DNA of 64,000 nt from Bacteroidales bacterium. Lineage in GTDB: Bacteria > Bacteroidota > Bacteroidia > Bacteroidales > WCHB1-69. Positions 171-62,578 of the stretch are shown piece after piece. Where the stretch lies: contig JAGCFD010000052.1 of assembly GCA_017650305.1 (NCBI GenBank), positions 21,096 to 85,095 on the forward strand. The letters run 5' to 3'. The notes beneath the pieces were generated by a model that saw only the letters and a list, made by a program, of their open reading frames with translations, ran no database searches and had not been told where the DNA came from. A program made the position numbers and the translations under genes. Position 1 is the first letter of the stretch. Each line of letters opens with the position of its first letter.

Positions 171-220
171 AGAAGTTGTCAGTTGGGAGTTAGAAGTCAA
201 TAGCTAACAGCCAATGGCCA
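171..220. repeat. heptanucleotide tandem array (7 units: agaagtt gtcagtt gggagtt agaagtc aatagct aacagcc aatggcc)
   Basis: Starts immediately after the prfB TGA. The 7-nt phase was read directly from the sequence. Confidence 0.7.
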
Positions 221-278
221 TCTTTGAAGTGTTGATAAGTTCTTATATCTTTTAGTTGCAGGCTAACGAGAGTATGAG

Positions 279-286
279 TATCTTTG
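279..286 (+). promoter_or_regulatory. -7 promoter box TATCTTTG upstream of prs
   Basis: Exact match to the Bacteroides -7 consensus TAnnTTTG, 44 nt upstream of the prs ATG. Confidence 0.5.
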
Positions 287-330
287 CTTTTTGCTTTGAT
301 AATTTTTAAATCAATAAATATTAAGCAGTT

Positions 331-1263
331 ATGGATAAAAACTATGTATTGGTGGCCGGTCGTGCCAATCCTGAATTAGCCAAAAGCATCGCAGAACAAC
401 TTGACATGCCGCTATTCCCGGTGGACATTATGCAGTTCAAAGACGGTGAGATACAGGTGTATTTCAATGATACTATCCGTGGTAAAGACGTCTTCATCAT
501 TCAGCCGACGTTCGCACCTGCAGACAATATCATCGAGCTTCTCATCGCCATTGATGCTGCAAAGCGCGCTTCTGCACGTAATATCATCGCGGTGATGCCC
601 TATTTTGGCTATGCTCGTCAGGATCGTAAAGACAAGCCCAGAACATCCATCGGCGCCAAGCTTATGTGCAACCTGCTGACAACTGCAGGCGTAAGCCGTG
701 TCATCACCATGGACCTGCATGCCGACCAGATTCAAGGCTTCTTTGAGGTGCCGGTAGATCATCTGTTCGCTTCCAACGTGTTTATTCCATACATCCAAAG
801 CCTGAACAATCCCGACATTATGATCGCCTCTCCCGACACGGGCGGTACCAAACGTGCCTCCACATACGCCAAGGCACTGAACTGCGACCTCGCCATCGGC
901 TTCAAGCAGAGAGAAAAACAGAACGAGGTTGCATCGTTGCATATCCTGGGTGATGTGCGTGGCAAGGAGGTGATCTTGGTAGATGACATCATCGATACTG
1001 CCGGTACGCTCTGCAAGGCTGCCGAAGCCATCAAGGCCATGGGTGCCAAGAGCGTGAACGCCATGTGTGCTCACGGCCTCTTCTCCGCCGATGCTTTGGA
1101 CAAAATAGAAAAGTCATCACTGGAGACAGTGCTCGTCACAGACTCCATCCCGTTGAAACGCCCGTGCAGCAAGGTGCGTGTCGTCTCTGTCGCCAAACTG
1201 ATGGCCGATGTCATCGAGAGCATCGAACAATGCACCTCGATTTCCAAGCACTACTACGTATAG
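331..1263 (+). CDS. prs: ribose-phosphate pyrophosphokinase
   Basis: 310 aa. PRPP-binding loop VILVDDIIDTAGTL, DLHADQIQGFF and RQDRK flexible-loop motifs. Confidence 0.93.
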   Translation: MDKNYVLVAGRANPELAKSIAEQLDMPLFPVDIMQFKDGEIQVYFNDTIRGKDVFIIQPTFAPADNIIELLIAIDAAKRASARNIIAVMPYFGYARQDRKDKPRTSIGAKLMCNLLTTAGVSRVITMDLHADQIQGFFEVPVDHLFASNVFIPYIQSLNNPDIMIASPDTGGTKRASTYAKALNCDLAIGFKQREKQNEVASLHILGDVRGKEVILVDDIIDTAGTLCKAAEAIKAMGAKSVNAMCAHGLFSADALDKIEKSSLETVLVTDSIPLKRPCSKVRVVSVAKLMADVIESIEQCTSISKHYYV

Positions 1264-1278
1264 TCAATATCAAATTAT

Positions 1279-2331: not shown

Positions 2332-3670
2332 TACCATACAGTTTCATATCGGCGAAGTGTTGATGGGTGGAGACGCTCCCGTGGTGGTGCAGTCCATGAC
2401 CAATACTGATACTTTGGATGTCGCTGCTTCCGTGGCACAATGCGAGCGCATGGTGGAATCCGGCGCGCAAATGGTGCGTCTGACGGTTCCTTCCATGAAG
2501 GAGGTCAACTCCTTGGCACAGATACAGAATGAACTTCGTCGGAAAGGATATACCGTGCCCATAGTGGCCGATGTGCATTTCAATCCGAAGGTTGCGGAAG
2601 CGGTGGCCTCCTTCGTGGAGAAAGTTCGTATCAATCCTGGAAATTATGTAGACAAGCGTGTTTTCGCCTCCTTCACGATGACGGATGAGGAGTATGCTGA
2701 TGCCGTCAGACGCATGGCCGAGCGCGCCCGCCCGCTATTGGAAATATGCCGGGCCCATGGTACTGCCATACGGCTTGGCATCAACCAAGGCTCTCTCTGC
2801 GACAGAATCTTGAACCGATATGGCAACACCCCCGAAGCGATGGTCCAGTCGGCTATGGAGTGGCTCGACATCTGCGAAGAGGCGGATTTCCATAAGATGG
2901 TCATCTCTATGAAGTCCAGCAATGTGCAGACGATGATAGAAGCCACCTTGCGGCTCCATGAAGCCATGCGAGCACGCGGCCAGGTTTATCCGCTCCACCT
3001 TGGAGTGACAGAGGCAGGATGCGGCATTGAAGGTCGGGTGAAGTCGGCCGCCGGCATCGGTGCCCTGTTGCTGACAGGAGTGGGCGACACCATAAGAGTA
3101 TCCCTCACCGAGCCGCCTGAGAATGAGTCTCCATTTGCCCATCGCATCGTGCAGACGGTTTCCAGACTGAATCCTCAAGACGCTAAGATTCAAGGCCAAA
3201 CGCTGTATTACACCGCTCATATCGCTGATGCTGAGGAGTGGATGGTCAGTGCCGCAGCCATGGCCGGCTATGCCTATTATTACCACCATATCAAAGATGT
3301 TGTTCTTGAAAACAATACCCAGACTCCTGCCCAGTTGGACGAACTCCGCGCCATAATTTTGCAGGCATGCCGTATTCGTATGAGCAAGACGGAGTTTATC
3401 TCTTGCCCGTCGTGCGGTCGCACTCAATACGATATCCAGTCGGTGGTGAATCTGGTCAAAGAGCGTTTCGCCAACCATCCTGGCCTCAAAATTGGCGTGA
3501 TGGGTTGCATCGTTAATGGCCCCGGCGAGATGGCTGATGCCGATTACGGTATCGTGGGCGCCTCCCAAGGACTGGTCTGCGTCTATAAGGCCAAGGAGAA
3601 ACTCACCAACCCGATAGCCATCCCGGATGCGCTGGATATGTTGGAACAACTGATAGCTGAGAATCTTTAA
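2324..3670 (+). CDS. ispG: 4-hydroxy-3-methylbut-2-enyl diphosphate synthase (flavodoxin)
   Basis: 448 aa. TIM-barrel N-domain, C-terminal Fe-S motifs CPSCGRT and GCIVNGPGE. Overlaps thiL by 8 nt. Confidence 0.9.
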   Translation: MHSTIQFHIGEVLMGGDAPVVVQSMTNTDTLDVAASVAQCERMVESGAQMVRLTVPSMKEVNSLAQIQNELRRKGYTVPIVADVHFNPKVAEAVASFVEKVRINPGNYVDKRVFASFTMTDEEYADAVRRMAERARPLLEICRAHGTAIRLGINQGSLCDRILNRYGNTPEAMVQSAMEWLDICEEADFHKMVISMKSSNVQTMIEATLRLHEAMRARGQVYPLHLGVTEAGCGIEGRVKSAAGIGALLLTGVGDTIRVSLTEPPENESPFAHRIVQTVSRLNPQDAKIQGQTLYYTAHIADAEEWMVSAAAMAGYAYYYHHIKDVVLENNTQTPAQLDELRAIILQACRIRMSKTEFISCPSCGRTQYDIQSVVNLVKERFANHPGLKIGVMGCIVNGPGEMADADYGIVGASQGLVCVYKAKEKLTNPIAIPDALDMLEQLIAENL

Positions 3671-27460: not shown

Positions 27461-27468
27461 GAAACGGA

Positions 27469-27667
27469 GAGTTAATAGATGATAGATAATAATTAATAGT
27501 TAATAGATAATAGTTGATAATTTAGGGCTAATGGCCAACGGCTAACGGCTAACAGCCAAAGTTCAAAGTCAAAGTTCATAGATAATAATTAATAATTCAG
27601 GGCTAATGGCTAACAGCTAACGGCTAATGGCTAACAGCCAAAGTTCAAAGTCAAAGTTCACAGTTAA
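27469..27667. repeat. roughly 200-nt block of about 28 phased heptanucleotide units, organised as a tandem duplication of a composite module
   Basis: Units ttaatag atgatag ataataa ttaatag ttaatag ataatag ttgataa tttaggg ctaatgg ccaacgg ctaacgg ctaacag ccaaagt tcaaagt .. . The 17-mer atagataataattaata is repeated exactly at 27482 and 27578. The 32-mer ggctaacagccaaagttcaaagtcaaagttca is repeated exactly, ending at 27577 and 27660. Confidence 0.85.
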
Positions 27668-27671
27668 TGCA

Positions 27672-32815: not shown

Positions 32816-34330
32816 GTGCTAATCATGACTGATCATCATATCCATATTATCGGCGGCGGTATCGGCGGGTTGTTCACAGCTGCGCTTCTGGCCAAGGAGG
32901 GCTATAAGGTGACTGTCTTGGAGCGTAGTGCGCATGTGGGCGGCGGCTTGCAGTCGTTTTCCCGCAACGGGGTCACCTTTGATGCCGGCATGCACGTGGT
33001 GGGTGGGCTCCAGCCCGGTGGCTCGCTCAACCGCATCTGCCGTCACCTCGGCATCCTGGACCAGCTGCACTATAGACAGGTCGATGCCGATTGCGGAGAC
33101 GAGGTGTTCTGTTTCGAGGACAGGACTCGCTACCGCATTCCGCAGGGCAAGGAAGCCTTCACGAAATATTTCCAGCAGCTTTTTCCGGAAGAGCGGGATG
33201 ACATCCAACGCTATGTGGATCACCTGTTTGCTATGGCTGACAAGGTTGATTTCTTCTTCCTCAGGCCCGGTAGCGAGGCGACGATAGGGGATGATACATT
33301 CTACCAGTCTTCAGCACAGTTCATTGCCGACCATGTGCGTGATCCGAAGTTGCGCAGTCTGTTAGCTTACCTCAGCCCGCTGTGTGGGGGTGATGCCGGA
33401 TACACGCCGGCCTATATCTTTGCTTTGATCAACTATCTCTATATCAGTGGTCATTACCGTTTTGAAGGACCTGCGGAACAGCTGGCTAAGGCGTTGGTGC
33501 ACCGCATTGGCGAGCTGGGTGGCGAGGTGTTGACCAACGCGGAGGTTGTTGACCTTCGCATGGAAGATGGAAGAGTGCAGTCTCTCATTACCACTGACGG
33601 TCGCAGTCTGAAAACGGACCTCGTCATCTCCTCCATCCATCCACAAGCGATGTTAAAAATTGTCAATGGCCCATTGTTCACGAAGGCTGCCCGCGCGCGT
33701 TTGTCGGCTGCCCCGAACAACTATTCCGCTTATTGCGTCTATGTGGTGCTCAAAGATGGAATGTTCCCGTATCTCAATCATCCGTGTTATGGCTGGGACG
33801 ATTACGACAAGGTGTGGCAGTTCGGAAAGTATGATGAAGAGAATTGGCCGCAAAATTTCGTCTATTTCACCCCGTGCGAAAAGGATCAAGGCCCCTACGC
33901 AAGGGCTTTGCAGGTGATCGTCTTCTCTCCGTTTTCCATGGTTGAACGATGGGCGGACACAACGGTCGGGAAGCGCGGAAGTGAGTATGAGATGTGGAAA
34001 GCAAAACACACGGAGCAGATATTGGATAAGCTGGAACTATGCCATCCAGGGTTTCGTGCGTGTGTGGAGGCCGTCTATGATGCCACGCCGCTGACCATCC
34101 GCGACTACTTCAACGAGCCAGAGGGGTCGCTCTACGGATTGCAGAAAGACAGCCGGGATCCGTTTGCTGGCTATTTGCCGATTCGCACCAGAGCTGAGAA
34201 CCTCTTGATGACCGGCCAGAATGTCTTCCTGCACGGCTGTTGTGGCGTGCCGCTCACGGCGGTGATGACTGCCGAGGCCGTGATGGGGGAGAAAGACGGA
34301 ATTGTGAAACAGTTAGAAGTTGGCAGTTAG
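32816..34330 (+). CDS. NAD(P)/FAD-dependent oxidoreductase, phytoene desaturase (CrtI)-like
   Basis: 504 aa. Dinucleotide fold IIGGGIGGLFTAALLAKEGYKVTVLE. The last 7 codons are built from heptad units. Confidence 0.8.
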   Translation: MLIMTDHHIHIIGGGIGGLFTAALLAKEGYKVTVLERSAHVGGGLQSFSRNGVTFDAGMHVVGGLQPGGSLNRICRHLGILDQLHYRQVDADCGDEVFCFEDRTRYRIPQGKEAFTKYFQQLFPEERDDIQRYVDHLFAMADKVDFFFLRPGSEATIGDDTFYQSSAQFIADHVRDPKLRSLLAYLSPLCGGDAGYTPAYIFALINYLYISGHYRFEGPAEQLAKALVHRIGELGGEVLTNAEVVDLRMEDGRVQSLITTDGRSLKTDLVISSIHPQAMLKIVNGPLFTKAARARLSAAPNNYSAYCVYVVLKDGMFPYLNHPCYGWDDYDKVWQFGKYDEENWPQNFVYFTPCEKDQGPYARALQVIVFSPFSMVERWADTTVGKRGSEYEMWKAKHTEQILDKLELCHPGFRACVEAVYDATPLTIRDYFNEPEGSLYGLQKDSRDPFAGYLPIRTRAENLLMTGQNVFLHGCCGVPLTAVMTAEAVMGEKDGIVKQLEVGS

Positions 34331-34344
34331 AAGTTAGCAGTTAT
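34310..34344. repeat. 35-nt heptad module cagttag aagttgg cagttag aagttag cagttat
   Basis: Contains the TAG stop of the CrtI-like gene (34328-30). The ATG of the next gene (34343-45) begins in the last unit. Confidence 0.85.
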
Positions 34345-35152
34345 GAGAAAATATAGAATCCTTATAGTATGTGTTGTCCTGATATTGTTGAGTGACAATA
34401 TCTTTGCGCAGAAGTTGACAGAGTTTCTGCCCGAGGGACGAAAAGCGGATACGGCCGTAGTGGTGTGTCCGGGCGGCAGCTATTACTGGCTGGCGAAACG
34501 CGGTGAGGGCAGCGAGGTGGCGCAGTGGCTGAATGCCAACGGCTATGCCGCCTACGTCTTGGAATACCCCGTCTCCGGTTGGTGGTCGTGGTTCACCCAT
34601 ATCCGGCGGAGCTGCTGCACGCAATATCCGGGACAATTGAATGCGCTGGAAGATGCGTTAAAAACCGTTAAATCGAAGGGCTATAAAACTGTCGGTGCGA
34701 TGGGCTTCTCCGCCGGCGGTCATCTGGTGATGAGTGGTGCCGAACTTTTGCCCGACAGCACCGCGCCCGACTTCGTGGCGCCCATCTATCCTGTGATCAC
34801 CATGCGCGAACCATACGTGCACAAACGCTCCCGTCGTGGACTCATGGGAGAGCGTCGCCAGCATGACCCCATGATGTGGGATTCCCTCTCGTTGGAACTG
34901 CACGCCGCTCAGGTGCGCTGCCCTGTATTCCTGCTCAGCTGCGTGGATGACCCTACCGTGGACTGGCATAATGCCAAGATGATGGCGGACTCGCTGAAAG
35001 CGTATGATAAGGTGAACGTCTATTACATGAATCCTCAGCAGGGAGGGCACGGCTTTGGCGTGAACAGGGATAAAATGGACAAACACGAAGTCAAGGATGT
35101 GCTCGCATGGCCGGATGAGTTTCTTGCCTGGCTGCGGCGCGGTGCTCGTTGA
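34343..35152 (+). CDS. secreted alpha/beta hydrolase (esterase/lipase-like)
   Basis: 269 aa. Signal peptide and nucleophile elbow GFSAGGH. Confidence 0.75.
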   Translation: MRKYRILIVCVVLILLSDNIFAQKLTEFLPEGRKADTAVVVCPGGSYYWLAKRGEGSEVAQWLNANGYAAYVLEYPVSGWWSWFTHIRRSCCTQYPGQLNALEDALKTVKSKGYKTVGAMGFSAGGHLVMSGAELLPDSTAPDFVAPIYPVITMREPYVHKRSRRGLMGERRQHDPMMWDSLSLELHAAQVRCPVFLLSCVDDPTVDWHNAKMMADSLKAYDKVNVYYMNPQQGGHGFGVNRDKMDKHEVKDVLAWPDEFLAWLRRGAR

Positions 35153-44873: not shown

Positions 44874-44932
44874 ATTAGTGAACAGTGATCAGATAATAGT
44901 CATAGTCAATAGTCATAGTTATAGTCAACAAT
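44874..44932. repeat. degenerate 6-7-nt-period array (TAGTCA(A) x5 plus ttagtga acagtga)
   Basis: Fills the whole pstA-pstB spacer. TAGTCA/TAGTTA occur at 44897, 44903, 44910, 44916 and 44922. Confidence 0.6.
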
Positions 44933-45679
44933 ATGATAGAAGTCAAAAACCTCAACATCCATATCAAGAATGCCCACATATTGAAGGATGTGAATGTCAC
45001 GTTGCCCGAGCGGCAGATCACCTGCATCATCGGGCCATCGGGATGCGGCAAGACCACCTTGCTGCGGACACTCAACCGCTTGATAGACTCCACGGAAGGG
45101 GTCCGACTTGCCGGACAGGTGCTGGTCGATGGGCAGGACATCATACACAGCGGTTCGGAGATCACCGAGTTGCGCCGTCGGATCGGGCTGGTGAGCCAGC
45201 GTCCATGTCCGCTGCCCATGTCCATTTTCAACAACGTGGCCTATGGCTGCCGCATCAACAATCTATGTAAAGGCAAAGAACTGCATCGCAGAGTGGAGGA
45301 GAACCTGCGCGGAGTGGGGCTCTGGGACGAGGTGAAAGACCGTCTTCACGCGCCTGCCGCCCGCCTCTCCATTGGCCAGCAGCAGCGTCTCTGCCTTGCC
45401 CGCTCCCTTGCTGTGGAGCCCGAATACATCCTTGCCGATGAGGCCACCAGCGCGCTTGACCCTATCTCCGCCAAAACCGTGGAGGATCTTTTTGTGAAGC
45501 TTAAAGAGCAATATTCCATCATCATGGTCACTCATACCCTGCGGCAGGCTCTCCGTATCGCCGATCATGTTGTCTTCATGTATCTTGGTGAAATCATCGA
45601 GCAAGGTCCCGCCGACCAAGTGTTCCATCACCCTCAGCACGAGCTCACCCAAAAATACCTGTCCGGAGCCTTTAGTTAG
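44933..45679 (+). CDS. pstB: phosphate ABC transporter ATP-binding protein
   Basis: 248 aa. Walker A GPSGCGKTT, signature LSIGQQQRL, Walker B ILADEATSALD. Confidence 0.92.
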   Translation: MIEVKNLNIHIKNAHILKDVNVTLPERQITCIIGPSGCGKTTLLRTLNRLIDSTEGVRLAGQVLVDGQDIIHSGSEITELRRRIGLVSQRPCPLPMSIFNNVAYGCRINNLCKGKELHRRVEENLRGVGLWDEVKDRLHAPAARLSIGQQQRLCLARSLAVEPEYILADEATSALDPISAKTVEDLFVKLKEQYSIIMVTHTLRQALRIADHVVFMYLGEIIEQGPADQVFHHPQHELTQKYLSGAFS

Positions 45680-45714
45680 TTGGCAGTTAGTAGTTAGAAG
45701 TTAGTAGTTGTTGG
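45673..45714. repeat. heptad array tagttag ttggcag ttagtag ttagaag ttagtag ttgttgg
   Basis: The first unit contains the pstB stop (AGT TAG, 45674-79). Confidence 0.8.
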
Positions 45715-45768
45715 GGTATAGCATACAATGATGAATAATAATAATGGCAATTAAACAAATATAGATAA

Positions 45769-46668
45769 ATGTACAAGTTAACTCATTTGAAAGAATTGGA
45801 ATCCGAGTCCATCTATGTTTTACGGGAGGTGGCGGCGCAATTTGAGCGACCGGCCATCCTCTTCTCTGGTGGCAAGGATTCCATCGTGGTCACCTATTTG
45901 GCCTACAAGGCGTTCTATCCCGCCAAGATTCCGTTCCCGCTGTTGCACATCGACACGGGTCACAACTTCCAGGAGACCCTCGACTACCGCGACGCGCTCG
46001 TGGAGAAGTTAGGGGCGCAGTTGGTTGTCGGCTCGGTGCAGGAGAGCATCGACAAGGGGCGCGTGAAGGAGGAGAAAGGCTATAATGCTAGTCGTAACCG
46101 CTTGCAGACCACCACATTGTTGGATACTATCGAGGAATACAAATTCGACGCCTGCATCGGAGGCGCGCGTCGCGACGAGGAGAAGGCCCGCGCCAAAGAG
46201 CGTTTCTTCTCGCATCGCGACGAGTTCGGACAGTGGAACCCCAAAAACCAGCGGCCGGAACTGTGGAACATATTTAACGGACGCAAGAACATGGGCGAGC
46301 ACTTCCGCGTGTTCCCCATCAGCAACTGGACTGAGATGGATGTCTGGCAGTACATCTACGCCGAGAAGATTCCGCTGCCGTCGCTTTACTTCACGCACGA
46401 GCGGCGCTGCTTTCTCCGTGATGGCCAATGGCTGGCTGCCGAGCCCTGCATGATGCTGAAACCCACTGAGGAGGTGGTCACTCGCCGCGTGCGCTGCCGC
46501 ACCATCGGCGACATCACCTGCACTGGACTCACCATCTCCGAGGCCAACTCCTTAGAAGACATCATCGCCGAGATCGCCGCCACCCGCATCACGGAACGCG
46601 GAGGCCGTGCCGATGACAAACGCAGTGAGACAGCCATGGAGGACCGGAAGAAGGAAGGGTACTTTTAG
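45769..46668 (+). CDS. cysD: sulfate adenylyltransferase subunit 2
   Basis: 299 aa. PP-loop FSGGKDS. Conserved CysD C-terminus RMEDRKKEGYF-like. Confidence 0.92.
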   Translation: MYKLTHLKELESESIYVLREVAAQFERPAILFSGGKDSIVVTYLAYKAFYPAKIPFPLLHIDTGHNFQETLDYRDALVEKLGAQLVVGSVQESIDKGRVKEEKGYNASRNRLQTTTLLDTIEEYKFDACIGGARRDEEKARAKERFFSHRDEFGQWNPKNQRPELWNIFNGRKNMGEHFRVFPISNWTEMDVWQYIYAEKIPLPSLYFTHERRCFLRDGQWLAAEPCMMLKPTEEVVTRRVRCRTIGDITCTGLTISEANSLEDIIAEIAATRITERGGRADDKRSETAMEDRKKEGYF

Positions 46669-46700
46669 TTAGAAGTTTGTAGTTAGAAGTTAGTAGTATG
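46666..46700. repeat. 35-nt heptad module tagttag aagtttg tagttag aagttag tagtatg
   Basis: The first 3 nt are the cysD stop and the last 3 nt are the cysN ATG. Near-identical to the module at 34310-34344. Confidence 0.85.
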
Positions 46701-47987
46701 AATAATGGATATTTAGATATGGAGCTGTTGCGGTTTACGACCGCGGGCAGCGTGGATGACGGCAAAAGCACGCTCATCGGAAGATTATTATACGACAGCA
46801 AGTCGATTTTCGAGGACCAGCTGGAGGCAGTGGAACAGGCATCGAGGAGCCGCGGCAACGAAGAGGTGAACCTTGCGCTGCTTACCGACGGACTGCGGGC
46901 AGAGCGCGAGCAGGGCATCACCATTGATGTGGCCTATCGCTACTTTGCCACCCCCAAGCGCAAGTTCATCATCGCGGACACCCCTGGCCACATCCAGTAC
47001 ACCCGCAACATGGTGACGGGTGCTTCCACCGCCGACCTCGCCATCATCCTCATTGACGCGCGCAACGGCGTTGTGGAGCAGACGGTGCGCCACTCTTACA
47101 TCGCCTCGTTGCTTGGCATTCCTTTTATTGCTGTGTGCATCAACAAGATGGACTTGGTCGATTTCTCTGAGCAGGTCTTCAAGGACATCCAGCAGCGCTA
47201 CGAGGAGATGGCCGCCAAGATCGGCATCCACGCCTCGCTGCTCTTCATCCCGATCTCGGCCAAGTATGGCGATAATGTGGTGGAGACTTCCCAAAACATG
47301 CCTTGGTACACCGGTGGCCCGCTGATGCACTTGTTGGAGACAGTCTCTATTGACCACAAAATGGGCGACGAAACAGAGCCGTTGCGGTTCCCGGTGCAAT
47401 ACGTTGTTCGACCCATCTCCGACAAGTTCCCCGACTACCGCGCCTACGCGGGACGACTCTCCGGCGGTGTGTTGCGCAAGGGCGACACCGTGCGTGTGCT
47501 CCCCTCCGGATTGACGAGTAAGGTGAAAGCCATCATGCAGGCCGACAAGGAATTGGATATGGCGCACACCCCAGAATCCGTCTCCATTCTGTTAGAGGAC
47601 GACATTGACATCAGCCGGGGCGACATGCTTGTAAATGCAGAAGGACCGCAACCGACGATTTCCCAGCAACTCAAAATGCACTGCTGTTGGTTCAACGAAA
47701 CGGAGATGCAGTTGCGCAAACGCTACATCCTCCGCACCGCTGTGTCGGAAACTGTCGCGATGGTGCAAGCGGTGGATTACAAGGTGGATGTCAGCACTTT
47801 GGAGCACGTAGAGGGAGTGACGTCGTTGAAGATGAACGACATTGCCTGTATTACAGTCAAGACAGCCAATCCTATAGTGGTTGACAGGTATGCTGAGAAT
47901 CGTGTCACAGGCTCTGTAATCTTCATTGACCCCGACAGCTTCGAGACGGTGGGGGCGGGGATGATAGCCATGAACAATGTACAATGA
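46698..47987 (+). CDS. cysN: sulfate adenylyltransferase subunit 1 (GTPase), no APS-kinase fusion
   Basis: 429 aa. G1 GSVDDGKST, G3 DTPGH, G4 NKMD. Confidence 0.92.
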   Translation: MNNGYLDMELLRFTTAGSVDDGKSTLIGRLLYDSKSIFEDQLEAVEQASRSRGNEEVNLALLTDGLRAEREQGITIDVAYRYFATPKRKFIIADTPGHIQYTRNMVTGASTADLAIILIDARNGVVEQTVRHSYIASLLGIPFIAVCINKMDLVDFSEQVFKDIQQRYEEMAAKIGIHASLLFIPISAKYGDNVVETSQNMPWYTGGPLMHLLETVSIDHKMGDETEPLRFPVQYVVRPISDKFPDYRAYAGRLSGGVLRKGDTVRVLPSGLTSKVKAIMQADKELDMAHTPESVSILLEDDIDISRGDMLVNAEGPQPTISQQLKMHCCWFNETEMQLRKRYILRTAVSETVAMVQAVDYKVDVSTLEHVEGVTSLKMNDIACITVKTANPIVVDRYAENRVTGSVIFIDPDSFETVGAGMIAMNNVQ

Positions 47988-48000
47988 ACAATGTAGAATT

Positions 48001-48714
48001 ATGAGATATTTCAAAGACGATATTGAAGCATTGAATGTGCGTTTTGCGGAGACCGCTCCGGAAGAACTGCTGCAACATTTTTATGAGATTTATGGCGACA
48101 GGATTGCCTTGTCGTCCAGTCTGAGCATTGAGGACCAGACCCTAACGGACATGCTGATGAAAGTCGGTCCGGAAGCGAGGGTTTTCACACTCGACACGGG
48201 CCGTCTTTTCCCGGAGACCTACCAACTCATCGATAAGACCAATTTGCATTACGGCATCCACATGGAGGTCTTCAGTCCGCAAACGGAGTCGTTGCAGCGA
48301 TTTGTGCGAGAGCAAGGCATCAACCCCTTCTACGAAAGCATTGAGAAACGGCACGCCTGTTGCCATGTGCGCAAGCTCGAACCTCTCGGTCGTGCATTCC
48401 AAACGCTCGATGCCTGGATCTGCGGACTTCGCCGTGAACAGTCTGTCACCCGTACCAATATGCAGAAGATTGAATGGGATGAAAACCATAATGTGTTGAA
48501 AATCAATCCGCTCATCGACTGGACTGAAGCACAAGTGTGGGACTATGTGAAGACTCACCAGGTGCCGTACAACAAGCTGCACGACAAGGGTTACCCGAGC
48601 ATTGGGTGCGAGCCATGTACACGGGCCGTGAAGCCTGGCGAAGACATTCGCGCGGGCCGCTGGTGGTGGGAATCACCCGAGCACCGCGAGTGCGGGCTGC
48701 ATCAAAAGTCGTAA
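48001..48714 (+). CDS. cysH: phosphoadenosine/adenosine phosphosulfate reductase, Fe-S (APS reductase) type
   Basis: 237 aa from MRYFKDD. Catalytic ECGLH plus cysteine pairs ACCHVRKLEPL and SIGCEPCT. The track start at 47977 overlaps cysN. Confidence 0.85.
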   Translation: MRYFKDDIEALNVRFAETAPEELLQHFYEIYGDRIALSSSLSIEDQTLTDMLMKVGPEARVFTLDTGRLFPETYQLIDKTNLHYGIHMEVFSPQTESLQRFVREQGINPFYESIEKRHACCHVRKLEPLGRAFQTLDAWICGLRREQSVTRTNMQKIEWDENHNVLKINPLIDWTEAQVWDYVKTHQVPYNKLHDKGYPSIGCEPCTRAVKPGEDIRAGRWWWESPEHRECGLHQKS

Positions 48715-50627: not shown

Positions 50628-52151
50628 ATGAATCCGATTTTCACCCTCGCTGACGTTGAAAAAATCGTTTACGGAGACAAGAAGATAGCCCTTTCCGACC
50701 TGCCGATGGACAAGGTGGCGGAGTGCTACGATTTTCTGAAGCAGTTCAGCGCAGACAAGATCATATACGGTATCAACACCGGCTTCGGGCCGATGGCGCA
50801 ATGGCGCATCGACGATGCCGACCTCACCGCTTTGCAATACAATATCATTCGCAGTCACTCCACGGGCGCGGGCGAGCCGCTGCCCGACGAGTGCGTGAAG
50901 GCCGCCATGGTGGCCCGCCTCGGCACCTTCCTGCAGGCCCGCTCCGGTGTGCATCCTGACCTCGTGAAGCTCTTGGTGGAGATGATCAACCGCGACATCC
51001 TCCCGATGATTCCTCGTCATGGCAGCGTGGGTGCAAGCGGCGACCTCGTGCAGCTGGCGCACCTCGCCCTCGCGATGATCGGGGAGGGGAGCGTCCACTA
51101 CCACGGCGAATGGCGGCCGGCAGCGGAAGTGCTGAAGGAGAATGGACTCGAGCCGTTCAAGATCCACATTCGCGAAGGACTCTCCATCACCAACGGCACC
51201 GGCGTGATGACCGGCGTGGCGATGATCAACCAGTTCCAGGCCGAGCAACTGCTCGACTGGGCCACACTCGCCGCCGTGATGATGAACGAGATCGCCGGCT
51301 CCTTCGACGACCTGATGGCTGAACCGCTCAACACGGTGCGCCGTCACGAGGGACAGCAGGTCATCGCCGCCCGCATGCGCACGCTCGCCCGCGACAGCCA
51401 GTGCCTGCAACAGCGCGAGCATCAGCTCTATGAGGGTGACCATACCGAAACGACCTTCGACCACAAAGTGCAGCCCTACTATTCGTTGCGTTGCGTGCCG
51501 CAGATCCTCGGTCCCATTTACGAGACCCTGGCCAACTGCCGCCGCGTGCTCGAAGAGGAACTTAACTCCGCCTGTGACAACCCCATCGTGGATCCCGAGA
51601 CCCGCAATGTCTATCACGGTGGCAACTTCCATGGCGACTACGTCTCTCTCGAACAGGACAAAGTCAAGATTGCAATGGTCCGTCTCGTGATGACCGCCGA
51701 GCGCCAGCTCAACTATCTCTTCCATGACCGTATCAATGGCATCTTGCCGCCGTTCCTCAACATGGGCAAATTAGGGCTCAACTACGGCATGCAGGCGTGC
51801 CAGTTTACGGCTACCTCCACCACCGCCGAGTGCCAGACGCTGGCCATGCCCAATTATGTGCACAGCATCCCAAACAACAATGACAACCAAGATGTTGTGA
51901 GCATGGGCACCAACACCGCATTGCTCACCCGCACGGTCATCGACAACGCTTGGCAGGTGCTCTCCATCCAGTATATCGCCCTTGCCCAAGCCGTTGACTG
52001 TCTGAATATTGCCGATAAACTCGCCCCCATTTCGAGACAGATATACAAACAAGTGCGCGAGATATGCCCCGCCTTCATTGAGGATACGCCGTTCTACGAG
52101 GACCTGCGGAATGTGGAGGCGTTACTTAGAAGACAACGCCTCGGCTTTTAA
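50628..52151 (+). CDS. aromatic amino acid ammonia-lyase (HAL/TAL family; flexirubin-type tyrosine ammonia-lyase-like)
   Basis: 507 aa. MIO-forming GASGDL. Motifs GINTGFGPMAQ, NIIRSHSTGAG and HSIPNNNDNQDVVSMGTN. From memory these closely resemble the Flavobacterium johnsoniae TAL. Confidence 0.8.
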   Translation: MNPIFTLADVEKIVYGDKKIALSDLPMDKVAECYDFLKQFSADKIIYGINTGFGPMAQWRIDDADLTALQYNIIRSHSTGAGEPLPDECVKAAMVARLGTFLQARSGVHPDLVKLLVEMINRDILPMIPRHGSVGASGDLVQLAHLALAMIGEGSVHYHGEWRPAAEVLKENGLEPFKIHIREGLSITNGTGVMTGVAMINQFQAEQLLDWATLAAVMMNEIAGSFDDLMAEPLNTVRRHEGQQVIAARMRTLARDSQCLQQREHQLYEGDHTETTFDHKVQPYYSLRCVPQILGPIYETLANCRRVLEEELNSACDNPIVDPETRNVYHGGNFHGDYVSLEQDKVKIAMVRLVMTAERQLNYLFHDRINGILPPFLNMGKLGLNYGMQACQFTATSTTAECQTLAMPNYVHSIPNNNDNQDVVSMGTNTALLTRTVIDNAWQVLSIQYIALAQAVDCLNIADKLAPISRQIYKQVREICPAFIEDTPFYEDLRNVEALLRRQRLGF

Positions 52152-52188
52152 CCAAGAACCTAAACCTTAAACCCTATACTCTAAAAAA
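52152..52188. repeat. heptad array ccaagaa cctaaac cttaaac cctatac tctaaaa
   Basis: Fills the entire spacer between the lyase stop (52149-51) and the reductase ATG (52189). Confidence 0.65.
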
Positions 52189-52917
52189 ATGAAATACGCA
52201 CTCATAACCGGAGGTTCCCGCGGCATCGGACGTGCCGTGGCCATGCGCCTCTCCCGCGACGGGATGCCCGTCATCATCAATTATGTAAGCAACGATGCAG
52301 CTGCCGAGGAGACCAAACAGATGGTCGAGGCTCAGGGCGGCACTTGCGAGCTGCTGAAGTTCGACATCGCTGACGCACAGGCCGTCGATGCAGCCTTGCA
52401 GCAGTGGGAGGAGTCGCACCCCGACGATTATATCTCCGTGCTGGTGAACAATGCCGGCACGCGCCGCGACAACCTGATGATCATGATGGATGAAGACGAC
52501 TGGCATAGCGTCATTGACACGCCGCTGAACGGCTTCTTCTACATCACCCGCCGGGTGGTGAAGACGATGTTGACCAAACGCGATGGCCGTATCATCAACA
52601 TGGCATCGCTTTCGGGATTGAAGGGCGTCCCCGGCCAGACTAACTACAGCGCTGCCAAGGCTGCCATCATCGGCGCGACCAAGGCGTTGGCACAGGAGGT
52701 GGCCAAGCGCAAAGTGACGGTCAACGCCGTGGCGCCGGGCTTCATCGCCACCGACATGACCGCCGAGCTGGATCAGGCTGCCCTCAGCAAGATGATCCCC
52801 GCACAGCGCTTCGGCACACCCGACGAGGTGGCCGCCGCCGTCGCATTCCTCGCCTCCCCGGAAGCCTCCTACATCACCGGGCAGGTAATCCAGGTGAACG
52901 GAGGACTATACAGTTAA
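52189..52917 (+). CDS. 3-oxoacyl-ACP reductase (FabG-family SDR)
   Basis: 242 aa. Motifs TGGSRGIGRA, NNAG and YSAAKAA (YxxxK). Confidence 0.9.
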   Translation: MKYALITGGSRGIGRAVAMRLSRDGMPVIINYVSNDAAAEETKQMVEAQGGTCELLKFDIADAQAVDAALQQWEESHPDDYISVLVNNAGTRRDNLMIMMDEDDWHSVIDTPLNGFFYITRRVVKTMLTKRDGRIINMASLSGLKGVPGQTNYSAAKAAIIGATKALAQEVAKRKVTVNAVAPGFIATDMTAELDQAALSKMIPAQRFGTPDEVAAAVAFLASPEASYITGQVIQVNGGLYS

Positions 52918-52966
52918 AAGTTGTCAGTTAAGAGTTGTCAGTTAGCAGTTCGCAGTTGGAAGGTGG
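52911..52966. repeat. heptad array of 8 units: cagttaa aagttgt cagttaa gagttgt cagttag cagttcg cagttgg aaggtgg
   Basis: The first unit supplies the reductase stop (AGT TAA). The phase was verified base by base. Confidence 0.85.
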
Positions 52967-53203
52967 GTGGCGAATAAAAAAAGGGGACTATATACTTGAT
53001 GGCACCTATGTGATGGTGAAAACAGAACCTCTTTTTTCGAGATTTCATTGCAATGAGCAATAACGTTCTTTGTTATAAGTATCAGTTTATTAGGTAATTA
53101 TAGTCTTTAACTTTTCTCTTCTATATAACTAGAATCCTTGTTATTTCTCATGTCCGTTTGAATATTTCAATGAGAACTTGATAGAAAAATTACAAAAGAT
53201 CAA

Positions 53204-55705: not shown

Positions 55706-55731
55706 CCTTGCAGTTCAAGTGTTTTCCGCGG

Positions 55732-55739: not shown

Positions 55740-55899
55740 CATAAAATGCCAGAATCTAAATCGTATTATTGATCTTCTTTTCTTTTTGATTGTTATTGTT
55801 AATCCGAATAGTTTAAGCAAAACATGTTCTGTTTCACCTATAATGATAAGAATAAGTGGAAGGGTTGCACCCGGTAGAAATTTTTTTTCTAAAAAATCG

Positions 55900-55907
55900 T
55901 ATTTTTG
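55900..55907 (+). promoter_or_regulatory. -7 promoter box TATTTTTG
   Basis: Lies 20 nt upstream of the ATG at 55928, which supports the shorter KS start. Confidence 0.5.
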
Positions 55908-55927
55908 CCGCCCTATTAGAATCGTAT

Positions 55928-57148: not shown

Positions 57149-57178
57149 GCGCGACTTTCTGGAGAGGTGCCTCAGTCC

Positions 57179-58716: not shown

Positions 58717-58724
58717 GTTGAATG

Positions 58725-60233: not shown

Positions 60234-60256
60234 GGATTAATTTTTTTTTGAAGGCG

Positions 60257-60264
60257 CAAAGATA
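60257..60264 (-). promoter_or_regulatory. -7 promoter box TATCTTTG for the TPR-dedA-aroE operon
   Basis: The reverse complement of caaagata lies 23 nt upstream of the ATG at 60233. Confidence 0.5.
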
Positions 60265-60276
60265 CTGCTTTTTTTC

Positions 60277-60284
60277 TATCTTTG
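60277..60284 (+). promoter_or_regulatory. -7 promoter box TATCTTTG for the DRTGG/hydrogenase-like operon
   Basis: Lies 48 nt upstream of the ATG at 60333, back-to-back with the minus-strand box 12 nt away. Confidence 0.5.
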
Positions 60285-60332
60285 CAGTCCTATTCATTCT
60301 TTATTATTAACATTAAAATATTGGATTAAATC

Positions 60333-60680
60333 ATGACATTAAAAGAGGTTGCCGACCTGTTACAGGCTACGGTGATTACAGGAGAAGATTTTTTGGACAG
60401 AGAAGTGGAGTGTGTGTTTGCTTCTGATCTGATGAGCGATGTGCTAACCATTAAGGATCATGACGGCTTGCTGCTTTTGACGGGCCTTTGCAATCTTCAG
60501 TCTATGCGCACCTGTGAGATGGCTGACATCCAGATGGTGCTGGTGGTTCGCGGCAAAGTGGTGACCGAGGATATGATTGAAATCGCGGAAGACAACGACA
60601 TTGTGGTACTCTCAACACCATATTCCATGTATAAAACCTCGGGTATCTTATACAACGCCGAACTCCCTTCTATTTACTAA
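60333..60680 (+). CDS. DRTGG-domain protein
   Basis: 115 aa. The pattern ..DHDGLLLLTGLCN.. and the size are typical of DRTGG modules found next to hydrogenase-like sensor genes. Assigned by eye. Confidence 0.55.
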   Translation: MTLKEVADLLQATVITGEDFLDREVECVFASDLMSDVLTIKDHDGLLLLTGLCNLQSMRTCEMADIQMVLVVRGKVVTEDMIEIAEDNDIVVLSTPYSMYKTSGILYNAELPSIY

Positions 60681-60694
60681 TAAAACAATCGCTT

Positions 60695-61108
60695 ATGGAT
60701 TTTCAATATCATGTTGAAGGTGGTGATTTCACCAATGCCGGATCAACCTCAAGCGAGGTGAAAAGGATGCTGAAGAAGATGGGTGTCCGTCCGGATATAG
60801 TAAAGCGGACCGTAGTGGCCTTGTACGAGGCGGAAGTCAATATCGTTGCGCATGCCTACCGTGGCGATATCTTCGTCAACTTGGAGCCTGACAAGGTCTG
60901 CATAACCCTTAAGGATGAAGGGCCTGGAATTCCCAATGTGGAGTGGGCTATGCAAAAAGGCAACTCCACCGCCTCGCCTAAAGTCCGTGAGATGGGCTTC
61001 GGCGCCGGCATGGGCCTCCCCAATATCCAAAACAACTCCGATGAGATGCATATTGACACAGAGGTTGGGGTAGGGACTACCATCAGCTTTGTCAACCATT
61101 TCGCATAA
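60695..61108 (+). CDS. HATPase_c-type anti-sigma regulatory factor / Ser-Thr protein kinase-like ATP-binding protein
   Basis: 137 aa. N-box EAEVNIVAHA, G1 DEGPGI, G2 GFGAGMGLPN. Confidence 0.7.
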   Translation: MDFQYHVEGGDFTNAGSTSSEVKRMLKKMGVRPDIVKRTVVALYEAEVNIVAHAYRGDIFVNLEPDKVCITLKDEGPGIPNVEWAMQKGNSTASPKVREMGFGAGMGLPNIQNNSDEMHIDTEVGVGTTISFVNHFA

Positions 61109-61156
61109 GTTGTGATTATGATGATTTGTTATTTTGTTAATTAACAATAATTTACT

Positions 61157-62536
61157 ATGCAAGAAGATTTCCACCACGCGCTAAAATTCAAGTACGACCT
61201 TTGTATCGGCTGTGCCCATTGTACGGGTGCCTGCCCTACGGGTGCTATTCACGTGGATGACGGACACCCGCGCTTGGACCCGAACCGTTGTGTGGACTGT
61301 GGCCGCTGCTATATCGCATGCCCCGTCAATGCCATCTATATTGAGCAGGACGACTTCCAGACGGTGTACGACTGCAAGTACCCGGTGCTGCTGATGCCCT
61401 CCATTTTTATGGCTCAGTTCGAGGACAAAATCAAGGAGAAGACAATCTTGTCCGCTTTGTATCATATTGGCTTCAAGCATGTCTTTGAGTGTGAGAAGAG
61501 CGTTGACTTTCTCAGGGACGAAATGCAGAAAGCAACGAATGAGAATGACGGGTTGAAACCTTTGATTTCCACATTCTGTCCGGCTATTGTGCGACTGATT
61601 CAGGTGAAATTTCCTGTTCTGGTGCCGAATCTTTACCTTATGAAACCCCCGTTGGACCTGACCGCTTTGTATATTCGTAAGCTGTTGACGGAAGAGGACC
61701 ATATACCCGCGGAAGATATCGGAATCTTCTATGTGACGCCTTGTGCCGCTAAGATCGCGGCTATCAAGAGTCCGGCCACGGAGGAGGAATCTCCTGTGAC
61801 AAAGGTGATTAATATGAATTTCTTGTATAGTAAGGTGATGCGTGTCATCAAACAGGGAGAGTACCAACTCTGTGACGATGCGCGAACCCGTTTCCACCGT
61901 CTCTCAAAATCCAGTCTCAACTACACGCTCACAGGTGGCGAAGCTAATCTGCTCAAAGAGGGCCGCAATTTGGCTATCGACGGCATCCATAATGTCTCGG
62001 AGTTCCTGGAGAAGTTGGAAGATGAGGACATCCAGGACATCGACTTCCTGGAGCTGCGCGCCTGCGATGAGAGCTGTTCCGGCGGTATCCTGACCGCTAA
62101 CAACCGTTTCTTGATGACGGAACGCCAACGCAAACGCATGCAGAAGTCGCCTGATGAGGTGGATGCCGAGGATAACGATTTGCTCAACTACACCGACTAC
62201 CTGGCGCAGCATAAGCGTGTGCTTGGCCATGTGGAGCCTCGTTCTATGGATAAGATGGACGATGACTTGGCCACGGCTATGCAGAAGATGAAGCGCGCCT
62301 TTGAGATCAACTTGAACCTGCCGCAGGTGGACTGCCGTATTTGCGGATACCAATCCTGCAAGTCATTGTCTGAGGCTGTCGTGAAAGGCGATGCGGAAGT
62401 GGACCAGTGTATCTTCATCCAGCGTATTCTGGAGCACTGTGACAAGATGGATATTTCGGAATCCATGAAGGTGATGACCAAGATCTGGGGTACTAAGAAG
62501 ACCAGCTCCTCCATTGCGAAGAATCTGAATCTGTAG
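61157..62536 (+). CDS. [FeFe]-hydrogenase-like protein (2x[4Fe-4S] ferredoxin domain + H-domain-like core + C-terminal 4-Cys domain), putative sensory type
   Basis: 459 aa. Ferredoxin motifs CIGCAHCTGACP and CVDCGRCYIACP. H-cluster motif equivalents STFCP (vs TSCCP), TPCAAK (vs MPCxxK) and ELRACDESCSGG (vs ExMACxxGCxxG). C-terminal CRICGYQSC..C. Confidence 0.7.
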   Translation: MQEDFHHALKFKYDLCIGCAHCTGACPTGAIHVDDGHPRLDPNRCVDCGRCYIACPVNAIYIEQDDFQTVYDCKYPVLLMPSIFMAQFEDKIKEKTILSALYHIGFKHVFECEKSVDFLRDEMQKATNENDGLKPLISTFCPAIVRLIQVKFPVLVPNLYLMKPPLDLTALYIRKLLTEEDHIPAEDIGIFYVTPCAAKIAAIKSPATEEESPVTKVINMNFLYSKVMRVIKQGEYQLCDDARTRFHRLSKSSLNYTLTGGEANLLKEGRNLAIDGIHNVSEFLEKLEDEDIQDIDFLELRACDESCSGGILTANNRFLMTERQRKRMQKSPDEVDAEDNDLLNYTDYLAQHKRVLGHVEPRSMDKMDDDLATAMQKMKRAFEINLNLPQVDCRICGYQSCKSLSEAVVKGDAEVDQCIFIQRILEHCDKMDISESMKVMTKIWGTKKTSSSIAKNLNL

Positions 62537-62578
62537 CTGTTAGCCATTAGCCGTTAGCCATTAGCTGTTGGCTGTTAA
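62537..62578. repeat. heptad array ctgttag ccattag ccgttag ccattag ctgttgg ctgttaa
   Basis: Fills the whole spacer between two convergent genes. The last unit contains the minus-strand stop (AGT TAA) of the radical SAM gene. 62537-62557 is the exact reverse complement of 27617-27637. Confidence 0.85.

Follow-up and report, generated by a model that had tools for sequence, protein, structure and literature searches.

Heptanucleotide repeat arrays at gene boundaries in a ruminal Bacteroidales genome: C-poor arrays sit behind stops, and G-poor ones tend to lie ahead of starts

Introduction

What places tandem arrays of 7-nt units at the ends of genes, and what decides which of them persist, is the question raised by a 64,000-nt stretch of contig JAGCFD010000052.1 (assembly GCA_017650305.1), which belongs to an uncultured rumen Bacteroidales and is hereafter called the window. 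An earlier note on this DNA had drawn attention to heptamer arrays carrying stop codons, knew of no described function and considered that they could be six-frame translational insulators, binding arrays for a protein or slippage-prone spacers. Its remark on function was fair, and the function of dispersed heptanucleotide repeats is still called unknown or speculative (PMC4679880, PMC4692102, bioRxiv 10.1101/2022.06.06.494920), but the class itself has been described as heptanucleotide simple-sequence repeats (SSRs) (PMC4679880, PMC4692102). The arrays of the window are dispersed intergenic heptanucleotide SSRs of this already described class, and what is new here is the rule that C-poor arrays come after stops and G-poor arrays before starts. 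Such arrays can turn operon spacers of 4-8 nt into spacers of 30-200 nt and rewrite the last residues and the stops of real genes; in practical terms, gene callers will misplace starts and stops at them and short-read assemblies can break there.

Results

Period-7 arrays in the window and in other Bacteroidota

Tandem Repeats Finder, together with a re-reading of each locus in a 7-nt register, placed period-7 arrays at every listed locus. All nine loci of the earlier note hold what it described, including the in-phase runs of 14 units from 27472 (after which a 6-nt unit shifts the phase) and of 8 units from 52911, but the locus at 47963-48009 had been overlooked, and the one at 44874-44932, listed as a degenerate heptamer array, is an array of mixed 6-, 7- and 13-nt periods. 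In a 28-nt sliding window with at least 75% self-match, lag 7 yielded 8 segments (365 nt) along the 64 kb, and neither lags 4-6 and 8-12 nor Markov-2 simulations yielded any. When windows of 21 nt with a minimum of 16 matches were used, lag 7 marked 10 loci against 0.07 expected, lag 14 marked 9 as the harmonic of lag 7, and none of the remaining lags from 4 to 13, nor lag 15, came near the lag-7 signal. Along the 64 kb, the kind of autocorrelation that the earlier note had proposed as a genome-wide check singled out lag 7, with 8 to 10 loci against 0 to 0.07 in simulation.

The ten arrays sum to 657 nt, about 15% of the approximately 4.45 kb of non-coding DNA in the window. All of them lie in or at gaps between genes, and no array was found in the interior of coding DNA within the 59.7 kb of open reading frames (ORFs). 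The unit types are NAGTTAG, GGCTAAC, TAATAGA, CAAAGTT, ATGAACA and CCTAAAC. The pattern AGTTAGNAGTTNG gave 15 matches at 5 loci against 0.5 expected, all of them in sense orientation to the gene upstream, and only 4 of the 60 gene ends in the window read AGT-TAR (Ser-stop), which are the four named in the earlier note and are all associated with arrays. The features tested here that characterize heptanucleotide SSRs (7-nt head-to-tail units, confinement to non-coding DNA, variation by whole units and dispersed units preferred by the genome) were all found, genome-wide dispersal being judged on 64 kb of this genome. The closest genome record is a metagenome-assembled genome (MAG) of a ruminal Candidatus Limimorpha, whose CysD is 96% identical, and the GC content of the window is 51%.

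The period was followed in a first set of 80 loci (1.25 Mb) from other Bacteroidota and Chlorobiota species, centred on and oriented by cysD, and in another set, chosen independently around prs and amounting to 0.92 Mb. Lag 7 gave 77 segments in the first set, compared with 3-17 for each of lags 4, 5, 8, 10, 11 and 13; lags 6, 9, 12 and 15 gave 12-32 segments, those at 6 and 12 being probably mostly coding repeats. In the second set, 39 lag-7 arrays were found against 4-11 for lags 5, 8, 10, 11 and 13. In both sets 7 thus dominated once periods divisible by 3 are set aside. The units were unrelated between genomes (AGTTGAT, GAGTTAT, ACAATGA, AACCAAG, GGGACGA, TACCGAA, AATTGAT, GAATTAG and others), while AGTTTAG and AGTTGAG units occurred at other loci in three relatives (L001, L003, L099). 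Among cultured species, Anaerophaga thermohalophila (L054) has arrays between cysD and cysN.

Arrays were confined almost entirely to the spaces between genes in these genomes as well. Among 81 genomes, the density per 10 kb was 0.1 in ORFs, 8.5 in co-directional gaps between plus-strand genes, 10.9 in convergent gaps and 1.0 in divergent gaps, and this contrast (0.1 against 8-11 per 10 kb) is the intergenic enrichment over coding DNA for which the earlier note had proposed a test. Convergent gaps carried arrays more often than divergent gaps in the first set (12/106 against 2/122, p=0.004) and in both sets combined (14/175 against 6/213, p=0.035). In co-directional gaps the arrays stand at the edges, next to either the stop or the following start, and where a gap is long both of its edges often carry an array. 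An apparent excess between plus-strand over minus-strand genes (32/129 against 1/36) was distrusted because the spacer downstream of cysD is itself array-prone, the loci being centred on and oriented by cysD and the richest of them having nearly no minus-strand gaps. The same spacer in a Prevotellaceae MAG (L012, approximately 10898-11210) contains three G/C-rich elements of about 80 nt with the inverted repeat CCCTCCCCTGGATGGGGGAGGG, which look like an insertion of the repetitive extragenic palindromic (REP) or miniature inverted-repeat transposable element type, so the cysD-cysN spacer accepts other kinds of repeats too.

Placement relative to stops and starts depends on the strand

C-poor arrays, made of A, G and U in the mRNA, follow stops, and G-poor arrays, made of A, C and U, tend to precede starts. 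In co-directional gaps, stop-adjacent arrays read on the mRNA strand had a composition of A.37, C.05, G.25 and T.32, with G exceeding C in 19 out of 19, compared with C.18 and G.16 in ordinary spacers. Considering all stop-adjacent arrays of both genome sets, G exceeded C in 39 of 46 (p=2e-6), and among start-adjacent arrays C exceeded G in 13 of the 16 informative cases (p=0.02). The arrays abut or include the stop codon, and a stop triplet was repeated in phase at +7 in 17% of the array-flanked gene ends and 3% of the other gene ends (p=5e-5), which agrees with the positional link to stop codons put forward in the earlier note. As features of gene 3' ends, however, the arrays were only partly well described there, because 7 of the 10 lie in co-directional gaps and most of these reach the next ATG.

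The rule was also followed in viral contigs, which were chosen independently of the genome sets for holding three exact units of AGTTAGN, GATTGAN, AGTGATN or TAGGTAN. These units gave 113, 108, at least 120 and 74 stretches, respectively (at least 415 in all, against about 2 expected by chance according to our own estimate), and none of the 113 (AGTTAGN)3 arrays lay inside an ORF. After de-duplication, arrays that are A/G/U in the mRNA were found within 12 nt of the upstream stop in 65 of 124 cases, compared with 17 of 95 for A/C/U arrays (p=1e-7), while the next start lay within 35 nt of 32 of the 124 A/G/U arrays and 61 of the 95 A/C/U arrays (p=1e-8). The contrast on the stop side was significant for each of the four units taken singly, and that on the start side for AGTTAG and AGTGAT only. 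A universal preference for AGTTAG was ruled out, since scrambled A2G2T2 units were equally frequent in these contigs (113 against 108, at least 120 and 74), and no universal sequence-specific factor is therefore needed.

We found no statement of this strand rule in the available portions of the heptamer-repeat literature. The rule is simple and testable, it turns an old descriptive puzzle into specific experiments, and it argues that the mRNA, and not the DNA alone, decides where the repeats live. Moreover, arrays of both kinds were predicted to be less structured than ordinary spacers of matched length, the median minimum free energy (MFE) per nt being -0.03 for stop-adjacent and 0.00 for start-adjacent arrays against -0.08 (p=3e-4 and 4e-4, respectively).

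In some genomes the two kinds of array face each other, an A/G/T array after the stop being followed by an array of reverse-complement units (L025 10898-11002, L033 10898-10993, L045 4286-4379, L047 2054-2130, and L074). In the inverted pairs of cysD-cysN spacers the second array stands just before the next start, as in GAGTTAT...ATAACTC and GAGTTGT...ACAACTC, and L097 has a comparable pair ahead of prs (3479-3644). Paired with each other, the two arrays would give a long hairpin that links one cistron's end with the beginning of its successor, and such pairs represent a possible translational-coupling device.

Variation among strains and origin of the spacers

Contigs encoding an identical CysD were compared with the window. 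The pstB-cysD spacer is longer by 14 nt (two units) in L083, L086 and L087, the cysD-cysN spacer by 7 nt (one unit) in L081, L083, L086 and L087, and the cysN-cysH spacer by 7 nt, with diverged units, in L089, while the mixed 6/7-nt array between pstA and pstB differs by -6 nt between strains. The arrays at 27467 and 34307 showed no length variation, all available contigs being identical there (L091-L093 in the case of 27467). Third codon positions differ by 23% between the compared contigs, which are thus not clones. These differences of +14, +7, +7 and -6 nt at four spacers are the gain and loss of whole units expected of slipped-strand mispairing or unequal recombination; they correspond to the slippage-prone spacers considered in the earlier note, and a comparison of orthologous spacers, which it had also suggested, uncovered differences in copy number. 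The arrays vary in the number of units, yet they are not hypervariable in sequence. One contig (L093, around 7200) keeps the array at 27.5 kb intact but lacks about 60 nt that include the start and the predicted signal-peptide region of the downstream LolA-like gene.

In two sibling species (L001, L002) the pstA-pstB gap measures only 4-8 nt and the tail of CysN is shorter by about five residues than that encoded in the window, which indicates that the arrays are lineage-specific expansions of very short spacers, able to overrun the end of a gene. The pstB gene ends natively in Phe-Ser-stop in the siblings (AGT TAA in L002).

The ten arrays and their gene neighborhood

Seven of the ten arrays occupy co-directional gaps, and most of these fill their gap as far as the next ATG; two are in convergent gaps, and the remaining one follows prfB, 110 nt before prs. 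The latter (171..220, plus strand) stands directly 3' of the prfB stop TGA (168-170), prs starting at 331, and is composed of the AGTT-type units AGAAGTT, GTCAGTT, GGGAGTT and AGAAGTC, followed by the CTAAC-type units AATAGCT, AACAGCC and AATGGCC; its flanking genes are recognized by the Pfam families RF-1 (prfB) and Pribosyltran_N (prs). A compound array (27467..27668, plus strand) fills, with 200 nt, the gap between the EamA and LolA genes of an aryl-polyene-like cluster with blocks of TAATAGA, GGCTAAC and CAAAGTT units. From 27498 to 27668 it holds 2.2 copies, with 85% matches, of an 82-nt super-unit made of three types of heptamer blocks (TAATAAT-type, GGCTAAC and CAAAGTT), and this duplication indicates that arrays grow also by larger segmental duplications and not by single units alone. 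The CAGTTAG/AAGTTAG array at the 3' end of the CrtI-like amino-oxidase gene (34307..34353, plus strand) encodes the last seven codons of that gene (KQLEVGS) and its stop TAG (34328-34330) and reaches into the start codon (ATG at 34343) of the gene that follows; the tail KQLEVGS is probably an extension made by the array.

Four consecutive spacers of the pstA-pstB-cysD-cysN-cysH series carry arrays on the plus strand. The degenerate 6/7/13-nt array (44874..44932; ATAGTCA) occupies the whole pstA-pstB gap, from the stop TGA at 44871-44873 to the ATG at 44933. The NAGTTAG array at the end of pstB (45672..45716) contains the Ser-stop AGT TAG of this gene (45674-45679) and covers the pstB-cysD gap as far as its middle, and the TAGTTAG/AAGTTAG array between cysD and cysN (46663..46711) extends from the cysD stop TAG (46666-46668) to the cysN ATG (46698). 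The tenth locus, an ATGAACA/ATGTACA array between cysN and cysH (47963..48009), encodes the C-terminal tail of CysN (..AMNNVQ), supplies its stop TGA (47985-47987) and reaches the cysH ATG (48001). Further downstream, a G-poor array of CCTAAAC, CTTAAAC and CCTATAC units (52148..52188, plus strand) extends from the stop TAA of an aromatic ammonia-lyase gene (52149-52151) to the fabG ATG (52189), and eight in-phase CAGTTAA/AAGTTGT units (52911..52973, plus strand) start inside the FabG Ser-stop AGT TAA (52912-52917) and form the plus-strand end of a 282-nt convergent gap. The last array (62530..62583; CTGTTAG/CCATTAG), to which no strand is assigned, fills a convergent gap of 38 nt and includes both the stop TAG of a plus-strand Fe-hydrogenase-like gene (62534-62536) and the Ser-stop of a radical-SAM/SPASM gene (TTA at 62575-62577, read as TAA on the minus strand).

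Four arrays lie inside or at the ends of the two parts of an aryl-polyene/flexirubin-like cluster. The first part (20393-35152) contains a methyltransferase, two acyl carrier proteins, a lipid A-type acyltransferase, ApeP-like and ApeI-like proteins, several ketosynthases, LolA, a glycosyltransferase, an MMPL/acyltransferase fusion and the amino-oxidase, whose array is followed by an S9 peptidase gene; the second part, 15 kb away at 50628-52917, contains the aromatic ammonia-lyase and FabG. The GC skew is positive in 14 of 16 bins of 4 kb, including the stretch of minus-strand genes at 4-16 kb, and the plus strand is thus probably the leading strand. Arrays of AGTTAG type are all on the plus strand and behind plus-strand genes, and no array occurs in any of the six gaps that separate co-directional minus-strand genes by 25 nt or more, the numbers being too small to separate an effect of the replication strand from chance.

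Three copies of TGTCATWWTT lie on the minus strand at 40714-40765 with an exact spacing of 21 bp (40714, 40735, 40756), and they are the only matches in the window against 0.7 expected. They sit in the divergent gap between an AraC-type regulator gene (40128-40667, minus strand) and an operon of the phosphate porin O/P and pstSCAB (from 40828, plus strand). The copies resemble half-sites of the Pho box (CTGTCATA-type), and we take them to be, probably, the phosphate-regulon operator of this operon. Tandem Repeats Finder reports this region (40714-40765) as a 10/11/21-nt repeat, which is unrelated to the heptamer arrays. Two adjacent tRNA genes (15097-15258, minus strand) were the only matches to Rfam at gathering thresholds in the whole window, and none fell at the arrays.

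Discussion

Origin by slippage and filtering at the level of the mRNA

The explanation that we consider most likely, with moderate confidence, is that the arrays are born by slippage and filtered at the mRNA level into inert, unstructured linkers of three letters. This explanation builds on the observed gain and loss of units, confinement to non-coding DNA, expansion of short spacers, incorporation of stops, strand-specific placement and low predicted structure. Slippage would create and resize the arrays, and the restriction of arrays to DNA that is not constrained as protein fits the fact that a 7-nt insertion or deletion shifts the reading frame. A filter acting on the mRNA would then decide which arrays survive. 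C-free sequence would automatically be rich in TAA, TAG and TGA, so that an array overrunning the end of a gene would cost few extra residues, whereas G-free sequence could hold neither ATG, GTG or TTG nor G runs resembling Shine-Dalgarno sequences, and thus would not compete with the genuine start. Both three-letter alphabets would preclude G-C pairing, which would suit lineages without Shine-Dalgarno use. Translation initiation in Bacteroidota is thought to depend on unstructured upstream regions. The ribosomes of this phylum do not use Shine-Dalgarno pairing, according to the available portions of two reports (PMC7797042, PMC3155529). The surviving arrays would behave as unstructured three-letter linkers between cistrons, for example along pstA-pstB-cysD-cysN-cysH, in a genome poor in Shine-Dalgarno sequences.

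Several points weigh against this explanation. It leaves the favoured period of 7 without account, and each of its functional steps is deduced from sequence. Nor does it account for the NAGTTAG unit that is common to five loci of the window, on the same strand and including a 14-nt super-unit (YAGTTAG-RAGTTKG), which purely local, independent seeding does not predict. Similarity between units was 0.30 within and 0.10 between genomes, with similarity within the genome being the higher in 3 of 8 array-rich genomes (the window, L003 and L077). Arrays of unrelated units recur in the cysD-cysN spacer of about 20 of 81 lineages (partly scored by eye), and this recurrence could reflect selection rather than tolerance. 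Besides, arrays diverged at about 10% of the aligned positions (13/124, with pstB-cysD counted by hand) and other intergenic DNA at 17%; the lower figure may possibly point to some constraint on the sequence, weakly so because alignments of repeats are biased towards matches. In addition, the contrast between convergent and divergent gaps was not significant in the second genome set alone (2/69 against 4/91), and the figures on gaps and ORFs were obtained with crude longest-ORF gene calls.

Alternative explanations

The use of one genome-specific unit at many loci is a puzzle that STRRs, the short tandemly repeated repetitive sequences of cyanobacteria, pose as well. The same puzzle has been noted for the TAACTGA repeats (PMC4679880), and it keeps alive, as a rival, a trans factor that binds single-stranded RNA or DNA. 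In that case, which we consider unlikely without discarding it, the arrays would be platforms for a binder that covers about 7 nt, for which ribosomal protein S1, an RRM-1 protein (RbpB-like) or a protein with a cold-shock domain would be candidates. Its avidity would come from the tandem units, the genome-specific unit would mirror the specificity of the local protein, and the bound protein would regulate how stable the flanking cistrons are or how they are processed or translated. The families of units specific to genomes or clades speak for such a binder (AGTTAG-type at the five loci of the window, all in sense orientation, and AGTTTAG/AGTTGAG in L001, L003 and L099), as do the higher similarity of units within than between genomes, the strand-specific placement, which implies that the RNA strand matters, and the moderate conservation of array sequence across 23% synonymous divergence. 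It has been reported that RbpB of Bacteroides thetaiotaomicron binds a threefold repeat of the G/U/A motif GUAGGAUA with a dissociation constant (KD) of 5 uM and does not bind a C/U motif (bioRxiv 10.1101/2021.04.27.441718), and that CspB binds one heptamer per monomer (PMC4679880). We keep the in vitro preference of RbpB for a tandem G/U/A motif as a lead and not as evidence. On the other hand, units are unrelated between genomes and even within L057 and L058, viral contigs hold scrambled units as often as AGTTAG, the candidate proteins are leads from the literature, and peaks of RbpB in B. thetaiotaomicron obtained by crosslinking and immunoprecipitation were not reported at heptamer arrays (PMC11697453).

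A related and equally doubtful reading would make the arrays selected modules of cistron boundaries, in which C-free tracks on stops and G-free tracks before starts are unstructured three-letter RNA that governs termination-reinitiation coupling, Rho polarity or the recruitment of a single-stranded RNA binder with a 7-nt footprint. The reading would extend to lineages poor in Shine-Dalgarno sequences, that is Bacteroidota, cyanobacteria, Beggiatoaceae and their phages, and where complementary kinds of array occur together (L033, L045, L047) they would form a coupling hairpin melted by the terminating ribosome. If true, it would provide a function for a class of repeats that is not known to have found an explanation since 1990.

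It is improbable that the arrays are RNA elements of 3' ends, whether unconventional terminators, C-poor tracts avoiding Rho ("anti-rut"), 3' stabilizers or coupling hairpins formed by an array and its reverse complement. The greater frequency of arrays in convergent than in divergent gaps, in the two sets combined, would be in line with such a role, as would the hairpin-capable inverted pairs of L025, L033, L045, L047 and L074 and the similar one of L097. Rho utilization (rut) sites are C-rich and G-poor. The C-poor, G-rich composition of stop-adjacent arrays is the opposite of this preference, but the G-poor, C-rich arrays before starts would be rut-like. Most arrays of the window lie inside operons, where termination would be harmful. 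With regard to structure, the earlier note had seen no hairpin potential, which holds for the intercistronic arrays (MFE from 0 to -5.6 kcal/mol, with 0 kcal/mol at 52148..52188) but not for 171-225 and 62530-62583, which fold to -13.1 kcal/mol (z -1.6) and -15.4 kcal/mol (z -1.5), respectively. Judged against dinucleotide-preserving shuffles, however, no array of the window is significantly structured, and significant hairpins at 171 and 62530 were rejected as candidates when z scores of about -2 with mononucleotide shuffles became -1.6 and -1.5 with dinucleotide shuffles. A scan of 44001-64000, which leaves the arrays at 171, 27467 and 34307 outside its range, found no hairpin followed by a T-run and no terminator-like site at the arrays, in agreement with the claim that they are not classical terminators. 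Promoter-like matches inside 44897-44937 and 47971-47999 were at chance level in the consensus scan of the same range (19 found against 16 expected).

Selected translational insulators, in which stops cycle through the frames and end read-through or frameshifted ribosomes at cistron ends, are likewise improbable. Their appeal is that the arrays begin at or inside the stop codon, that C-free composition maximizes the density of stop triplets and that four or five genes of the window are terminated by stops supplied by an array. The earlier note had described stops in every frame of both strands, which is the case in 5 of the 10 arrays; one sense frame is open in each of the arrays at 34307, 44874 and 52148, and antisense frames are open at 46663 and 47963. 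A test was carried out on 34 stop-adjacent arrays from 21 genomes, in which the seven columns of the unit were permuted and composition and periodicity were kept. All three sense frames were closed in 59% of the observed and 58% of the permuted arrays, leaving a sense frame open in 41% of the former, and the density of stops was 0.113 per nt against 0.106 per nt (p=0.16); all three antisense frames were closed in 44%. Selection for stop codons as such was rejected on this test. C also remained scarce outside the stop triplets (C 0.12 against G 0.26), and arrays free of stops are common in other genomes (GGGACGA, TACCGAA, AACCAAG, ACAACTC). Moreover, ordinary A/T-rich spacers already hold stops, and an argument on antisense frames has no obvious selective basis. 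The proposal that the arrays exist as six-frame insulators was therefore not supported, and their stop codons are apparently a by-product of composition and not a selected feature. Lastly, an assembly or sequencing artefact is scarcely credible, since, although a short contig (L094) begins inside the array at 27.5 kb, as short-read assemblies often break at repeats, more than 10 contigs that differ in sample, assembler and database carry identical or unit-variant arrays at matching positions, contigs of other projects (ENA, Logan, NCBI GCA_017652025.1) among them, and equivalent arrays were found in hundreds of unrelated contigs.

Comparison with known repeat systems

Dispersed heptanucleotide repeats have reportedly been catalogued in several bacterial phyla since 1990, the STRRs of Mazel et al. 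(1990, reference 39 of PMC4692102) among them. SSRs of contingency loci resemble the arrays of the window in changing length by slippage, but they are found within ORFs or in the spacers of promoters, mutate at a very high rate, consist of near-perfect repeats and turn genes on and off, whereas the arrays are degenerate, lie after stops or between cistrons and moved by only one or two units across approximately 23% synonymous divergence. A phase-variable contingency locus was rejected on these grounds, the arrays altering at most a few C-terminal residues. Neither are they intrinsic terminators, for which a G+C-rich hairpin and a T-run were lacking in the scan of 44001-64000 and folding was no better than in shuffles, nor, as the earlier note had concluded, arrays of clustered regularly interspaced short palindromic repeats. 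REP elements, with their palindromic units of about 35 bp, fold into hairpins. The arrays share the distribution of REP and the bacterial interspersed mosaic elements (BIMEs), being placed after stops, within operons and between convergent genes but seldom between divergent ones, and differ in being direct repeats without significant structure. Unstructured, G-poor leaders upstream of starts favour loading of the 30S subunit and S1, and the A/C-rich leaders that act as ribosome standby sites or enhancers resemble in composition the G-poor arrays before starts.

Closer relatives are found among the heptamer repeats themselves, for which genome-specific units, variable length, occasional inverted pairs and the orientation of TAACTGA relative to starts have been noted (PMC4679880, PMC4692102, bioRxiv 10.1101/2022.06.06.494920). 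Direct TAACTGA repeats occur in Beggiatoaceae, Cyanobacteria and five Bacteroidetes (MacGregor, 2015, PMC4679880), the same paper reporting arrays in Flexibacter litoralis and Gramella forsetii, and S1, cold shock proteins (Csp) and CsrA have been proposed as their binders (PMC4679880). They share with the arrays of the window the intergenic heptamers, the genome-specific unit at many loci and the fixed orientation to genes (PMC4679880), and their reverse complement TCAGTTA, which becomes CAGTTAT when put in register, differs by a single base from the CAGTTAG of the window. TAACTGA sets of Beggiatoa are, however, mostly forward and a few nt upstream of starts (PMC4679880), while the dominant family of the window has the opposite orientation and is anchored at stops. 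Within the window no match to TAACTGA was found at 0-1 mismatch, and the two at 2 mismatches are close to chance (two or more in 5 of 100 shuffles). Membership in the exact TAACTGA family was thus ruled out by the absence of the unit and by the opposite orientation.

The STRRs of cyanobacteria and the GGGGATT (Nostoc) and GGGAATC (Xanthomonas) repeats are, like the arrays, dispersed intergenic heptamers, some of them inside operons (pecE-pecF), and vary in length and sequence between close relatives at the same gaps, with occasional inverted pairs (PMC4692102). The G-rich units of Nostoc and Xanthomonas can form G-quadruplexes (PMC4692102), in contrast to those of the window, which are A/G/T or A/C/T without G runs. 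STRRs in the strict sense (CCCCAGT, TTGGTCA, CAACAGT; Nostocales) were rejected as an identity, the host being a rumen Bacteroidales and the units different. Finally, the survey of long simple-sequence repeats (LSSRs) by Mrazek (2007) predates these rumen Bacteroidales genomes, and in the portions of it relayed by later papers no placement relative to stops or starts and no strand polarity is described. According to these papers, it found 7 to be the most abundant class among units of 5-11 nt and proposed polymerase slippage (PMC4679880, PMC4692102), and the idea that a polymerase footprint underlies the period of 7 is attributed to it in PMC4679880. As far as these partial accounts go, LSSRs and the arrays of the window are alike in being tandem 7-nt repeats that are intergenic, patchy in occurrence and variable in length (PMC4679880, PMC4692102, PMC4060949).

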